Shown piece by piece: positions 26,270 through 36,135 of a stretch of DNA of 64,000 nucleotides; positions within the stretch are counted from its first letter, which is position 1; each line of letters opens with the position of its first letter. A program made the translations under genes and the position numbers. Below the pieces are notes generated by a model, which was not told the origin of the DNA, did no database searches, and saw only the letters and a list, made by a program, of their open reading frames with translations. The stretch is from Lingula anatina (taxonomy: Eukaryota; Animalia; Brachiopoda): the NCBI GenBank assembly GCA_051362555.1, contig CM120641.1:36834401-36898400 (forward strand). The letters run 5' to 3'.

Positions 26270-28215
26270 TTAGGGCTTCTCAATGGTAACAATATATGGA
26301 TCTGCTTCTTTTATACATTTTTCATCGAAATTGGATCCAACAGTCCACAATGTCTCCAAATCATAATATTCTCTGGCTTCATCACTCATAATATGCAAGA
26401 CAATGTTTCCTAAAAACAACAATAAATAAACAAATAAATAAATAAATAAATAAATAAAAATAATAGTAATAATAAAAGTCTTCCACCAAGTGTCAGACAA
26501 AGTCTTTGCGCTATTTACTACATCAGCTATGACATGCTAATGTAGATATAATAAGACAATTACAAGTGAACTTCTACCAAAAATTTATTTATTTATTCAG
26601 AAGCCAGTATCAACAGATAAAGATCAGCAAGAAATGTGGAATCTTACCCATATCCAATGCAACCCAGGACTTGGAGTTTTTTCCAGCCATCATAACATGT
26701 TGATCTTTCGGGCTCCTTTTTCTTTTATACTGAAAAGTTAACATAAATTCTTATAGTTGATTTTTTTTTCTTAAATCTGTTTTGTATGCATGTGCTTATG
26801 AAGTCACTTTGATAACTCAGAATTATCACAATCTTGCATATTGTGTCTGAGCAATATAAGATACTTTAAGCTGTAAGTTCTTATTTCAGTCAGATGTCAT
26901 CTGCCAAAAATTATCAACCCTAACCACTCAGAAGGTAACATTTTAAAATTCTACATGCATATCAGACTCTAAGATCAAAATTAATGTACAGTAGTACTTT
27001 ATTTTGCAATACACTGTATGCTTACAACCAGTTTCACCCACAGTTCTACACTGTATACTTACAACCCACTTTACCCAGTGTTCTACACTGTATACTTATA
27101 TCCTGTATAACCCATGAAATCATACACTGTATATTTATGACCTAATTAACCCACAGAACTCTACACTGTATACTTACAACACCTTTAAGCCACTGAGTTC
27201 TACACTGTATACTAATAATCCATTTAACCCAAAGAGTTCTACACTGCATACTTACGACCCATATCACCCACTCAGCCATTGCCCTGATATGTCTTGCAGA
27301 AGAACCACTCACAATGACCATGTAGTCCACATAGTGGCATTCAGCTGGAACCTTTATCACACAGATATCATGAGCATTTTCGGAACGGAGAACTACAACA
27401 AGATCTTCTATATCATATACTCCAGTTTCACCCCCTGCAATGCAAAATTTAAAAAATAGAAGAAACATGTCTTTATTTTTGCATTTAAAAATATTGTGCA
27501 AAGGTAATTCTCTTTCCAATATACCACAAAACTAGTGGCCTTCTGCATAGGTTGATATTTCTTCACTTTTTGTATTAAATATTTTTGATTTTCCATAAAA
27601 TTCAGATAATAAATTATTTTGTTATATCTTAATTATTATGTTATATCTTAAATGAAAAAAAGAGCTTTCAACGGAGAGCAAAATATTTGCAAACAGCTCA
27701 GTAAAAATATATGTACTTTTTAATGGCACTGGAGAATGTTTCTCATAAACTCTCTCATATTCTACTTCAGCATCTTCATATAGCTCATCTTCGTCTTCAC
27801 TTGAATTGTCTGTGGTGTCATTGCAATTCTCCTCTTCTACATCTTTATCAAGACCATTTACGCTACTTGCTTTGTCATGGGCATCAATATTAGTCTCTGT
27901 ACAGCCATCGTCTTTTAATGGACTATTAAATTGTTCTTCACTTATGTTACTATGATCAAAATCTCCCATAATTTCCTTCATCAGGTCCTTTACCTCAGGG
28001 TCATTCTTTGGGTCATAAGTTCCATTTGAATGTTCTGAGCGTCTTGTGAAGTGTCTCTGTGCCATACTGTTTATAAGTGGCAAATTGCGGCTGCAAGTTT
28101 TGAGGTTTGAGTCAAACGTCCTGTGCATTAACTGACTATGAAAGCGAATGCATTCTGGGATATAACTATTACTAACGTATAAAATTACCCTCCTATAAAG
28201 TCTTGCGGTCTGCAT
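26270..28215 (-). CDS. MALSU1: Mitochondrial assembly of ribosomal large subunit protein 1 (RsfS/Iojap family); exons 28215-27717, 27434-27256, 26729-26648, 26409-26270
   Basis: Arg/Ser-rich presequence-like N-terminus and acidic linker, then RGETGVYDIEDLVVVLRSENAHDICVIKVP..YVDYMVIVSGSSARHI, WVALDMGNIVLHIM..AREYYDLETLWTVG. GT-AG introns with compatible phases. Confidence 0.93.
27010..27255 (-). repeat. 37-39 bp minisatellite (~6.5 units) containing the MALSU1 intron 5' splice site
   Basis: Minus-strand units resemble GTAAGTATACAGTGTAGAACTCTGTGGGTTAAATGGGTT and start at 27255, 27216, 27177, 27138, 27099, 27062 and 27025. Confidence 0.85.
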
Positions 28216-28866: not shown

Positions 28867-31082
<2,216 letters not shown>

Positions 31083-31179: not shown

Positions 31180-31259
31180 TACCACCCTGGGAAACAAAGG
31201 CCAGCTGCAGGCACCTTCCCTGTGTGTGCTTTTAAATACTCCTTATTCTAAGGGGGCAC
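31180..31259 (-). repeat. 80-bp terminal direct repeat (3' copy of the retroelement)
   Basis: TACCACCCTGGGAAACAAAGG...CCTTATTCTAAGGGGGCAC, identical to 35563-35642. Confidence 0.95.
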
Positions 31260-31588
31260 TTAAAAACACACACAGAGTCGGGCAAAATGACCTTTATTTC
31301 TCAGAATCTAGAACACTATAAATAAGTAGAACAGACAAACTAAATATTAATTGATTGGATCATAATTAAATTAAACCATTTCTGCAACAGGTAATGAAAA
31401 GTCCCAACCCAAGGTAGGGATTATTGTGATGAAAGTCTAGTTAAAATAAGCATTTTAGTTCATTGCACAGTGGAGCAATCACAATCACTGCATTTGCACT
31501 TAATTAAATTGCACATGACACAGTACACGTCCACACTTGAGCATGCATTTGGCAACCTAAAAAAAGTGTGTGTGGACACACAAAAACC

Positions 31589-32562
31589 TTATAGTTTCTG
31601 CACTGCTGATGTAACAACATCTAGCTTCATAGCTGTAGACGGTTTGATATATTCGTAGACGGCATCGCTTTTCCAATCCCCCATGGCTTTTACCATGGCA
31701 AGGGGTGTACCTACGGACATCAGCCAAGTTGCTCCCCCTCTGCGAAGGCTGTGGGTGTTGTAGGTGGCTGAGGAGAGTCCAATATCTTTCAAGGCCTGGG
31801 TGAGACGACGACGGAACAGAGATTGCGTTAGCACAGATAAATTTCCTTTCTCATCTGTGTAGGAGAAGAGGGGTGTGTCAGGAGCTGCAAGCTGGGCACC
31901 CAGGAATTTTAACAATGTTGTGATGGGACAGAGGGCAGAATCTGCTATGTAAGGCAGCACAACTGTATGTGGCGGGTGTCCATACTGATTTGTCTTTGAC
32001 TTGGCTATCCTAAGTATGCCCCCTTTCCCCATCACAGAAAAATCTTTCCGACACAAAGAATGTCCTGGTTCAGACTGGGATTTCACTGTCACGTTGCTTA
32101 CTCGAAGAAGTCCAAAGAAAGCACAAAGGCAAGCGGCCCATTGTTGTAGGTCCTGCAAGTTGCTGAGGTTGAATGTGCCATGGAGTTTATAAAGGTGCTC
32201 TGGAAGAAGCGGCAGTTTTTGGTTTCCTTGATCTCCCTTGTGTCGTCTTATTCCCCCTAGGATGGTCTTGAGCTCCCATGATGTAAGAGGGTTGCCTAGG
32301 CCAAACTCCATGTGCAGTATCCTGATGATGTTTAGGTATTGACGGACTGTCGAGACAGCACAAGAGCGTGCCAGAAAGGCAGCATAGCGGCACACGTTCT
32401 TACTTGACACTGGGAGGGGTGCACAGTTAATGGCATTGCAGAAGTTAATATATGAATTAAGGTGTGTTCTGTAAGTCACTTTTGTGGATGTAGCGAATAG
32501 CTGAGACTTCCAAAAGGCAACTTCTTGGTCTAGTTCTCTACATAGCTTTGTGGCAGTATTCC
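31589..32562 (-). CDS. Tyrosine recombinase of the retroelement (no in-frame ATG upstream of the conserved domain; start placed at the predicted splice acceptor)
   Basis: Catalytic set visible: FFGLLRVSN (R), AKSKT (K), HSLRRGGAT (HxxR), GDWKS (W), AVYEY (Y). The frame is open upstream of 32479 and overlaps the end of pol. Confidence 0.9.
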
Positions 32563-34185
32563 CTGTGAATACAGAAACATAAGTGAATGAGCAGTCATGT
32601 AGTGATTAAGGTAGTATGCAGGTGGTAATATATTTAGGCATGAGTACCACAGATTTATCAGGTCAGTAAATTGGAAGGCTTTTCCTGGCTCATGTAAACG
32701 CGAGATTGTATCAGCAAGGACATTGTCCGTCCCCGTTATGTGAGACGCTTCCAACGCAAAGTTACAATGCAGAGCCAGGCTCGATAGCTCTTTTAAAAGA
32801 TTATTACACATGACGTTGGGCGAGGCCCCTTTGTTTATTATGTCCATTGCCACTTTGCTATCTGTATGAATAACAACACGCTTGTTCTTCCATGTGACTC
32901 CCCATCTATGCGCTGCCAGGACTACAGCTGCGAGTTCCTGGACGTTAATATGCTGAATGCTCAGAACTGGGCTGTCTGAAAGCCAGTTGGTATAGAACCA
33001 ATCCCCGTAGTGGAAAGCTCCCCCTGCGGTGCTACTGGAGTCTGTGTAAACATGTACTTGCTCGCGCGTGTCCCATATCAGACGCGTATTGTTTCCCATT
33101 CGTAACCATGCAAGCCACCAGTCTATTTCATTGTGAATGTCCTTCACTCGGCATTTGTGCAATGGTTGCTTAAGTTCTCCAATCTTATTAAAAATTGGAC
33201 GTAGGTGGGTCTTACCCCACGGAATCACATTTGCTGCCCACGACAGTCTGCCCGCTAATGATTCCAGCTGCCTTCTGGTGGCACGTGTACGGCGGCTGAA
33301 AGAACTTAATATCTGGCAAAGTTCCTCTACTTTTTCCTTCTCAAGCGAAAGTGTACCTTGGGTTGTATCAATTACTGTACCCAGAAAGGTCAGTCTGGTA
33401 GTAGGGTCAACAGCCTTTTTCCAATTAATTCTGAAGCCCAGCTGCCGGAGAAGGGCGATGAGCTCATTGTACGTAGTAAAACACTCTTCACGTGTCTTGC
33501 CCACCACTAAAAAGTCATCCAGATACACCACCAGTTTGTGTCCCCGCTTTTCCATTATCCTTTTCACAGCCTGGGTGATGCGATGGAAAATCATAGGTGA
33601 TTTCCTGGCTCCAAACGGGAGTCTAGTGTCTGCTAACACCTGTTCTGAAGGTGACCCTTCAAAATGCCACTGAAGGCCTGTGAGGCAGTACTGCGAAGGA
33701 TGGAGTGGCACTGAGCGATAGGCAGAATGGAGATCAATTTTTGCGAGGAAATAGCCTGGCTTGATAAGAGATAGCGCATTTTCTAGTTTCTCACACTGGA
33801 AAGGTAGCTTCGAAGCATAGTCATTTACCGCATTTCCTGTTGGCCGACTGTAATCATGGATTACGCGCACTCCTCCATCTGGCTTAGGTACAGCTGATAA
33901 TGCACTGATGACTCTGGGAGACATGTGTGGCTTAATCAAATGTCCCTCACGTAGTTCAGAGAGGAGTTGTTCCTCAACTTTGGACTTAAAGTCTGGGTGC
34001 AGTGCTGATTTGCTGTTTTTGGTTTTTGCTGGTGCTATGTTAATTGCCTTTATATCGTCTACGATTTTAAAGCCTGTCTCTATGCCCCCTATTACGAAGT
34101 CATAATCATAATCCCCTCTCATAAGTTCTTTCCATGTCTTAATGTTATTGGTTAGTGGGGATACTGTGGGGGAATCCCCGGGCAT
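32530..34185 (-). CDS. Reverse transcriptase / RNase H (DIRS-type pol), 551 aa
   Basis: RT motifs: KPDGGVRVIHDYS, KIDLHSAYR, LPFGARKSP, YLDD, FLG. RNase H motifs: VYTDSS, HINVQELAAV, IHTDS, NVLADTISR. Confidence 0.95.
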   Translation of the reverse strand: MPGDSPTVSPLTNNIKTWKELMRGDYDYDFVIGGIETGFKIVDDIKAINIAPAKTKNSKSALHPDFKSKVEEQLLSELREGHLIKPHMSPRVISALSAVPKPDGGVRVIHDYSRPTGNAVNDYASKLPFQCEKLENALSLIKPGYFLAKIDLHSAYRSVPLHPSQYCLTGLQWHFEGSPSEQVLADTRLPFGARKSPMIFHRITQAVKRIMEKRGHKLVVYLDDFLVVGKTREECFTTYNELIALLRQLGFRINWKKAVDPTTRLTFLGTVIDTTQGTLSLEKEKVEELCQILSSFSRRTRATRRQLESLAGRLSWAANVIPWGKTHLRPIFNKIGELKQPLHKCRVKDIHNEIDWWLAWLRMGNNTRLIWDTREQVHVYTDSSSTAGGAFHYGDWFYTNWLSDSPVLSIQHINVQELAAVVLAAHRWGVTWKNKRVVIHTDSKVAMDIINKGASPNVMCNNLLKELSSLALHCNFALEASHITGTDNVLADTISRLHEPGKAFQFTDLINLWYSCLNILPPAYYLNHYMTAHSLMFLYSQGILPQSYVEN

Positions 34186-34188
34186 CTG

Positions 34189-35301
34189 TCAGTAGTCCTT
34201 ACGCTGCTGTAAGCCTGGCTGCTGTTGTGATTGCTTATGAGTAAAGTCTCCATGCCCCGATGTCAGACAGGTGCTACAGATGTGGGAAAATTTACAGTTC
34301 CTAATATTGCAGCCCAGCCGTCCATTAAACTTGAGGCAAACTGGGCGGCCTGTAGATGGGTCCGTTTTACTTTGCCTTTGTTGTCTTTGGGGGCGAGTTG
34401 GTTGGTCGACTTTAACTGGTGTCAACAGTAATTGCATCAGAAAAACACTGTCAGTGCCCCACTGAAACCCTTGTGTAGCCTGGGCTTTCCTGTATTCCAT
34501 ATCATAACGTAGCACTGACTGCCATTCGAAAGTTTGTGCCATGCAAGTGATCTTTGTGATGTAGCTGACGTAACTCACTACAGTAGACAAGTCTATGCCC
34601 TCTTTCACTATCATTTCAGTGAGGATCTTCATGCTGGCCTCAGTGTACTGCATGGGAGTTATGCTCTCTAAGGGGGGGCGTCTGTCGCTGAGGGACACAT
34701 TGAAGTCGCCAATCCTCACGGTCGCGCTGTCACTTTTGCCGGTGTTGTACTGCTGTTTAAACATAACAAAGTCCCGGACGTCATAATGGCGTTTTGCGGG
34801 GTTAGAAGCACCCAGGGAATCGAATGGGTCAAAGGTGCTCTTACCTTGAGGAGGCGCTGATTCCTTGAGAACTCCCTCGGTCGTCTTGGTTCCCAAAAGT
34901 TGACATAATTTTGTGTAGTCTAACTCTCCCTCGATTGCAGTGGGCGCCGCCATGTTCGTGACGTCACATCCTGTCTCTGAGGAGGATGGCGGCTGTGCTT
35001 CCGGTTCTCTGCTGCTGCCTGCCCTGGCTCCGTCCGTCTCGCATGGAGGGGCCACTGCGGCGTCGGCGACAGGCCCTGCTGCGGTTGGATTCTTGCTAAC
35101 ATCTGTATTTAGTGACGAAACTGCTTCCTGCAATAGCAGCAGCTGCCCCAGCGGTAGCGTCTTGCCGAAAGTTTTGTGGATCAACGTGTCCGTCAGCATT
35201 TTGCAGGATCTCGTTGAAGTGAAACCTGCTTCGCTCAGAATGGTCATTGTCTGGTCACTGAGTTCATACTCGTTTCTCCATGCCTGGAACTCTTCGCCCA
35301 T
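34189..35301 (-). CDS. Gag-like ORF1 of the retroelement, 370 aa
   Basis: First ORF of the element with a good Kozak context (CGGCACCATGG). Has a WQSVLRYDMEYR motif and a C-terminal Cys/His cluster CLKFN..C....CKFSHICSTC....H, typical of DIRS-order ORF1. Confidence 0.85.
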   Translation of the reverse strand: MGEEFQAWRNEYELSDQTMTILSEAGFTSTRSCKMLTDTLIHKTFGKTLPLGQLLLLQEAVSSLNTDVSKNPTAAGPVADAAVAPPCETDGARAGSSREPEAQPPSSSETGCDVTNMAAPTAIEGELDYTKLCQLLGTKTTEGVLKESAPPQGKSTFDPFDSLGASNPAKRHYDVRDFVMFKQQYNTGKSDSATVRIGDFNVSLSDRRPPLESITPMQYTEASMKILTEMIVKEGIDLSTVVSYVSYITKITCMAQTFEWQSVLRYDMEYRKAQATQGFQWGTDSVFLMQLLLTPVKVDQPTRPQRQQRQSKTDPSTGRPVCLKFNGRLGCNIRNCKFSHICSTCLTSGHGDFTHKQSQQQPGLQQRKDY

Positions 35302-35562
35302 GGTGCCGCCGTAGTAGATGTAGTAAAACGAATATTTATCGAGAGCAAAATAGAATAGGCTTAAACTGCAAGGTCGGTGTGCTAACGCTAAGAATTATGC
35401 ATGTTTCAGCTGGCGGCGCTAAACAAAGACTGCCCCAGGAGTGAAAAATTAATAGGGCCTACAAAGTTAAGCTGAATGACCATTGGCCACGCTACCGGAT
35501 GTTTTTCACGTGGCCTAGTTACTTAGAGCTGATAGGACTAAATTGTTTTTCACATGACTAGT

Positions 35563-35642
35563 TACCACCCTGGGAAACAAAGGCCAGCTGCAGGCACCTT
35601 CCCTGTGTGTGCTTTTAAATACTCCTTATTCTAAGGGGGCAC
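35563..35642 (-). repeat. 80-bp terminal direct repeat (5' copy of the retroelement)
   Basis: Identical to 31180-31259. Confidence 0.95.
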
Positions 35643-35977
35643 GATATGAACGCTAGATTTGTTTTAAAAATAAAGTAAAACAGTTAAAGCAGTGCTAGGG
35701 AAATTAGTTACAGAGCTTAAATTTATTGTGTTTAAGTAGACATGCCTGGAACTTTTATGTACTCTTATCTAAAGGGCACTTTCACACCTTTTTTAATTGA
35801 TCATAAATTATCCCAAAGAAGATATGTTACCTGTTACTTTGCAGATCAAAGTTATATATAAAAATTCCCTCTAGTCACCCTTCTTGTAAAATTAACAGTT
35901 TTGATGTTTGCAATACCTTTAGCTCTGTTTAGTACAGAGATCTGTTTGAAGTTATTCAGATCAGTCTAGTCCAGTAG

Positions 35978-36135
35978 GGGGCCGTAGCGATAGTCCGAAG
36001 GTTCATTGGTCCGAATGTTCACTATAGAACCTTCGGACCAATGAACCCTTGATTAAAAGATCGATAAAAATGTTACCACTTTTCGGACCAATGAACCTTC
36101 GGACCAATGAACCTTCGGACTATCGAGACGCCCCC
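35978..36135. mobile_element. MITE family C (158 bp, 8-bp TSD TCCAGTAG)
   Basis: GGGGCCGTAGCGATAGTCCGAAGGTTCATTGGTCCGAA ... TTCGGACCAATGAACCTTCGGACTATCGAGACGCCCCC. TCCAGTAG at 35970-35977 and 36136-36143. Contains 16-bp subterminal repeats. Confidence 0.88.

Follow-up and report, generated by a model that had tools for sequence, protein, structure and literature searches.

Conserved splice sites predict a fusion of a SAM-like Gag domain with the tyrosine recombinase of a Ngaro-like retrotransposon from Lingula anatina

Retroviruses and gypsy express env from a spliced mRNA, and foamy viruses use a spliced mRNA for pol. In these systems, a 3' ORF without a 5' start is reached by removal of gag-pol as an intron, and the same arrangement is predicted here for a Ngaro-like element. 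However, their spliced mRNAs are not known to keep more than a short leader, whereas in the element described here a folded 70-aa Gag domain plus a linker would be kept. To our knowledge, none of these systems encodes a tyrosine recombinase.

According to excerpts of PMC5580714, Ty1/Copia elements form a spliced subgenomic shGAG RNA; as predicted for the present element, a conserved host splice yields a second mRNA from one retrotransposon transcript. In Ty1/Copia, splicing and early termination give extra Gag only, whereas in the present element pol would be skipped and the Gag N-terminus would be fused to the integrating enzyme.

Ngaro-like elements, as described in excerpts of PMC9210276, PMC8547959 and PMC3783388, have gag, RT/RNase H and a tyrosine recombinase encoded on a single strand, lack a methyltransferase and carry direct repeats, and all of this is also found here. 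The excerpts describe three ORFs and no splicing, and the string "splic" occurs 0 times in the main texts of the three papers, whereas for the family in the window a conserved gag-to-recombinase intron as well as a SAM-like Gag N-terminus are indicated. The first 300,000 characters of PMC5009743 contain no mention of DIRS or Ngaro. A description of a gag-recombinase splice was not found in a literature search at the level of titles and abstract openings. The only published proposal found for the expression of the Ngaro recombinase is a frameshift: an excerpt of PMC13003380 cites Poulter and Butler (2015) for the view that the recombinase is probably produced via programmed frameshifting in a -1 overlap. 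The question addressed here is how a recombinase lacking an ATG is expressed, and how it reaches the cDNA outside Pol.

Identity and insertion site of the element

The window, i.e., the whole stretch of 64,000 nt of L. anatina DNA that was analyzed, contains a Ngaro-like tyrosine-recombinase retrotransposon at 31184..35642 on the minus strand. Its borders were derived from the ORFs and from empty-site RNA reads of other individuals, which connect 31183 with 35643 through 11 other letters. Therefore, the element comprises 31184-35642, and the insertion is polymorphic. The 11 letters of the empty allele are absent at the filled site 31183/35643. The element is inserted antisense to a VTT-domain gene, presumably TMEM41-like, the last exons of which (29958..31082, plus strand) were identified by host splice joints and by PF09335. 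The insertion is located in the 3' UTR of this gene, 101 nt past its stop codon. Two small features were observed in the surroundings. Just past the insertion site lies a MITE-like element (35978-36135) whose inverted arms measure 44 nt and which contains short repeats inside; loose ends of RNA reads at 35977 suggest that it is absent in other alleles. In addition, a tandem array of about 7 copies with units of 37-39 nt is present at 27005-27310.

Three ORFs are encoded on the minus strand in the order gag, RT/RNase H and recombinase, as is characteristic for Ngaro. The gag ORF (34189..35301, ATG at 35301) encodes 370 aa with a SAM-like domain, a disordered linker, a helical core and a Cys/His finger. 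The pol ORF (32530..34188), encoding RT and RNase H, begins in frame immediately after the TGA of gag. The tyrosine recombinase ORF (31589-32605) opens after a TAA that the earlier note had placed near 32608 and that was located at 32608-32606 on the minus strand. The recombinase matches PF13495, an N-terminal integrase domain, at frame residues 37-98 and also PF00589, with both matches slightly below the curated cut-off. The catalytic set of tyrosine recombinases is R-K-HxxR-H/W-Y; it is represented by R153, K189, H270, R273, W296 and Y304 (numbering from 32560), which are conserved in at least 90% of 83 sequences. The element has this recombinase in place of a DDE integrase.

A methyltransferase domain after RNase H was not detected with Pfam at E 0.1, and there is no room for one because only 137 nt separate pol residue 497 from the recombinase start. 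DIRS1-like elements are marked by inverted terminal repeats together with an internal complementary region. Inverted repeats of at least 30 nt were not found at the element ends, and only a weak local inverted match (57 nt, 77%) is present near repeat A2. Therefore, neither a DIRS1-like element, for lack of both inverted terminal repeats at its ends and a methyltransferase in pol, nor a PAT-like element, for lack of the methyltransferase domain in pol, was retained as a candidate. The element has direct repeats. The part of the 5' repeat A1 common with A2 (35563..35642, minus strand) has 80 nt and is 100% identical to 31180-31259, the 3' repeat A2 (minus strand). The element's 3' end is truncated within A2, and B2 is missing in the window copy. 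The full A1..B1A2B2 pattern is present in the relatives L081, L028 and L071. In summary, the element works like Ngaro (order DIRS), and it probably is a Ngaro element. Among the matches listed, the closest one to its recombinase shows 98% identity and carries a Lingula anatina annotation, in keeping with this brachiopod or a close relative as the likely host.

Two further observations concern the family. The gag stop codon and the in-frame pol are arranged as TGA CAG ATG (34191-34183, minus strand). The in-frame TGA-C also occurs in six relatives (L013, L014, L015, L016, L022 and L033), while other relatives have it in a different frame from pol. This recurrence suggests stop-codon readthrough as a putative route to Gag-Pol in part of the family. 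Four animal-type Ngaro elements (L081-L084) were found within a bacterial MAG (Sedimenticola sp.), likely as a result of host contamination of the bin.

The predicted intron and its splice sites in related elements

The earlier note had claimed that the recombinase frame lacks an ATG before its conserved domain, and that a phase-1 intron joins the Gag N-terminus to it while removing nearly all of pol. These claims agreed with the re-examined sequence. Within the recombinase frame, no Met occurs until residue 99 (32311), beyond the N-terminal integrase domain. The donor CCTCAAG|GTAAGA has its GT at 34844-34843, 457 nt past the gag ATG and in phase 1; its core AAG|GTAAGA (34839..34847, minus strand) is encoded as Gln-Gly-Lys. 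The acceptor ...TTCTGTATTCACAG|GG has its AG at 32564-32563, is also in phase 1, and is composed of a pyrimidine tract and CAG|G (32562..32590, minus strand). As a result, a predicted coding exon 1 of 152 codons plus 1 nt (34845..35301), a predicted intron of 2282 nt (32563..34844), and a predicted exon 2 for the tyrosine recombinase with PF13495 and PF00589 (31589..32562) follow one another on the minus strand. The fused Gag(1-152)-recombinase frame has 476 aa and no internal stop, the junction reads ...ESAPPQ-G-NTATK..., and only 11 codons of pol remain. The splice also deletes Gag 153-370, i.e., the helical core and the Cys/His finger, which the earlier note had not stressed. On the sense strand of the element, the donor 34845/34844 ranked 1 of 225 GT and the acceptor 32563/32562 ranked 1 of 321 AG with rough splice matrices, the frequencies of which were approximate and not from a tool; the lead of the acceptor over the runner-up was slim (6.3 versus 6.2).

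The following mechanism is proposed. The phase-1 donor in the gag linker would be joined to the acceptor, likewise in phase 1, at which the ATG-less recombinase starts, and the spliced RNA would be translated into a 476-aa protein with the SAM-like N-terminal domain of Gag ahead of the recombinase. The unspliced RNA would yield Gag and Gag-Pol and would also serve as the genome. The shared SAM-like domain might bring the recombinase into the Gag assemblies that hold the cDNA.

For an analysis of conservation, 84 related loci were used, the best segments of which are 28-48% identical to the window recombinase. Nine of these were dropped from the acceptor test because the match begins late or is too close to the contig end, and the 75 usable loci were reduced to 59 non-redundant representatives at <70% recombinase identity. 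The best AG within -45 to +40 nt of the recombinase start was in phase 1 in 48 of the 59 relatives (p 2e-7 versus the local phase-1 share of all AG, 150/309; because the relatives share ancestry, p-values overstate independence). For sites scoring at least 3, this was true for 33 of 36. In the 14 controls with a shifted search range, the phase was the same in 13-25 of 50-59 cases, and the median acceptor score was 4.6 compared to -2.5 to 2.8 in these controls. Starting at the acceptor, the reading frame remained open in 47 of 48 relatives. A T-rich tract is seen in the 58 best phase-1 acceptors, of which 49 have C at -3 and 30 have G at +1; these features are partly built in by the scoring. 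The site occurs across the entire recombinase tree (41 of 49 rows of a quick tree). Eleven of the 59 relatives had no best phase-1 acceptor in the tested range; of these, L082 and L083 carry a good one farther upstream, and L036 has one within that range. Thus, the acceptor and its phase are conserved in distant relatives.

The splice sites could also be unused by-products of protein coding, i.e., of Gly-Lys codons and of a hydrophobic pol tail. However, coding for pol does not account for the acceptor, because the pol stop precedes the acceptor in 16 of 45 relatives, and the phase and strength of the acceptors far exceed those in the shifted controls. The donors bear on this explanation in both directions. 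They were analyzed in 20 non-redundant gags of at least 300 aa, from 30 loci with a gag candidate. The best donor was in phase 1 in 18 of the 20 full-length gags, but coding itself favors this phase (12 of 20 for pol; a mean of 12.7 of 20 after synonymous resampling, with 3 of 500 resamplings reaching 18), so that the phase count alone is weak. More informative is the choice of codons. For Gly-Lys in the linker, GGT is used in 12 of 15 cases, compared to 10 of 54 outside it (p 2e-5 by Fisher's test, 17 elements). In this test the sites were defined by the protein only, the linker bounds came from the protein alignment and were set after the donors had been seen, and L028, L036 and L071, with an atypical or truncated N-terminus, were omitted. 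In L013, L014 and L027, the residue is changed to give Ser-Lys (AGT AAG), but the GT is retained. The by-product explanation is, in our view, the least credible of those considered here.

Conservation of the donor concerns its context. Gly-Lys is present at the donor place in 7 of 7 Gag homologues. Of the 18 phase-1 donors, 17 sit in the linker that separates the N-terminal domain from the conserved core. Depending on the clade, donors occupy one of three positions in the alignment. In these sequences, the conserved property is the phase and the place between the domains rather than one alignment column. The predicted intron length is 2012-2401 nt across 22 elements, including the window. Together, the sites, phases and codon choice indicate that the gag-recombinase splice occurs in vivo, to which we assign a probability of roughly 85%.

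Alternatively, the acceptor might be real but be used with another donor, or translation might start at a nearby or internal ATG, in both cases without a Gag fusion. An in-frame Met before recombinase residue 10 is present in only 22 of the 59 relatives, a minority for which such a start would be available; in public records, the annotated proteins of related Lingula copies begin at internal Mets (240 and 296 aa), and the donor position varies among the clades. In the window, however, there is no Met before frame residue 99, and a start at that residue would lose the N-terminal DNA-binding domain. A non-coding first exon would need neither a fixed acceptor phase, as seen in the 33 of 36 strong sites, nor a phase-1 GGT-AAG in the gag linker. 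Therefore, this alternative is regarded as unlikely. The Gag-recombinase splice would explain why annotations start the recombinase at wrong internal Mets. It would also name the real protein, i.e., the Gag N-terminal domain plus the recombinase, and tell which protein to make for Ngaro recombinase expression or for a transposition assay.

According to the published proposal, a Gag-Pol-recombinase polyprotein would arise by programmed -1 ribosomal frameshifting where RT/RNase H ends. In the window, there is indeed a 73-nt overlap of the recombinase frame with pol, in the -1 frame, and it is covered by unspliced RNA. A -1 overlap also exists in 23 of 52 relatives, and the review of the field takes the frameshifting view (quoted in an excerpt of PMC13003380). 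However, among the 52 relatives, the counts of which are blurred by decayed loci, 24 have the recombinase in the -1 frame relative to pol, 18 in the +1 frame and 10 in the frame of pol itself, and 13 lack any overlap. A canonical X XXY YYZ slippery site was found in 0 of the 23 relatives with a -1 overlap, and also not in the window. An excerpt of PMC3783388 describes the YR ORF as in frame or shifted across all Ngaro groups. Furthermore, frameshifting leaves the conserved pyrimidine tract and the CAG|G unexplained. We regard it as very unlikely in this family, and the splice likely replaces the published ribosomal frameshift.

The N-terminal domain of Gag

The predicted exon 1 contains the N-terminal domain of Gag (about aa 1-70; 35092..35301, minus strand), which was characterized with a structure model, Foldseek, profile searches and Pfam. 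The model comprises a five-helix domain (aa 3-69), the disordered linker that holds the donor, the helical core, and the Cys/His finger, and aa 1-60 have a pLDDT of 91-97. In Foldseek, ranks 1-8 for the N-terminal domain were SAM-containing entries with a probability of 0.90-0.97 and E 0.5-1.1; the best local SAM matches had an rmsd of 2.3-2.5 Å, at E values above 0.001. HhH-type domains of RadA and NusA had lower scores than the SAM entries and are the less likely assignment. The Gag profile matched 9wbj, a 100-aa chain of CtBP2 isoform 2, which we take to be the RIBEYE SAM region, with E 1.4e-5 (62 chains, 2 entries). Pfam called SAM in 2 of 26 Gag members. Based on the model, Gag aa 1-70 appears to have the five-helix SAM fold and is described here as SAM-like. 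Several copies of the Gag-type SAM-like domain each were observed in P0135, P0136, P0195, P0271, P0182 and P0199, some of which are very long; these are possibly domesticated or related host proteins.

SAM domains often self-associate. Because the shared exon is SAM-like, recruitment of the recombinase to Gag particles is plausible. That the shared domain carries the recombinase into Gag assemblies is given a chance slightly below even. According to an excerpt of PMC8547959, Ngaro copies without ORF1 show an altered insertion-site pattern, and ORF1 sets the integration-site preference; this effect could be explained by a fusion of the Gag N-terminus with the recombinase. A wider and more tentative reading is that, in animal Ngaro elements in general, a polymer-forming SAM exon is spliced to the recombinase, leading to SAM-SAM co-assembly into Gag particles and possibly to target steering. 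If true, it would provide a direct mechanism for the integration-site preference determined by ORF1 (excerpt of PMC8547959), and the frameshift model would be overturned for the superfamily.

RNA and protein evidence

RNA was analyzed in 8 of 9 runs with the same species label (X1-X7 and X9), using about 6-30% of each, and joints with <3 reads were not listed. The earlier note had proposed that the integrase is made from a spliced subgenomic mRNA. The conserved sites, phases and codon choice are in favor of this proposal, but the junction 34845^32562 did not appear in the 8 shallowly sampled runs, as would also be expected if the sites were by-products of coding. Loose read ends at the donor or the acceptor were likewise not detected in these 8 runs. 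Introns of host genes were represented by 1-8 reads per run. The element is well covered in X4 only, with a sense depth of 7.1 and 8.3 on the two sides of the acceptor and of 0 in the bin at the donor. Because the sense depth continues across the acceptor, the RNA at this site in X4 is mostly unspliced. At both repeats, loose read ends suggest that a different copy is read through from its flank. The RNA data speak against abundant splicing in the sampled runs, but not against splicing in a tissue that makes full-length element RNA.

Among the best 120 of 165 recombinase homologues, most of which are gene-caller products on metagenome contigs, no Gag-recombinase fusion was evident (longest 368 aa). 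No relatives were found in a metagenome scan with a single protein query or in viral scans. Intron-less DNA copies were not found among the 84 loci; L070 was rejected as a candidate, as it is 5'-truncated and has retained the acceptor. A recombinase domain was present in only 1 of 163 Gag-type proteins, P0201. This is a natural fusion of a Gag N-terminus with a recombinase; the genomic contig encoding it is up to 1.49 Mb long. P0201 was not accepted as proof of splicing, because protein comparison places its junction about 40 aa before the donor of the clade and about 15-20 aa after the acceptor. P0201 may be more like a deletion derivative, or may reflect another donor.

Antisense RNA was also observed. 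In X4, its depth is about 20-35x over 35004-35372 (plus strand), and it ends at a plus-strand donor AAG|GT (35372/35373). Past 35372, reads continue into differing outside sequences, with 15 such reads in X4 and 4 in X6. The likely explanation is that the 5' part of gag holds an antisense promoter facing outward, with transcripts that are spliced into flanking host DNA at other copies.
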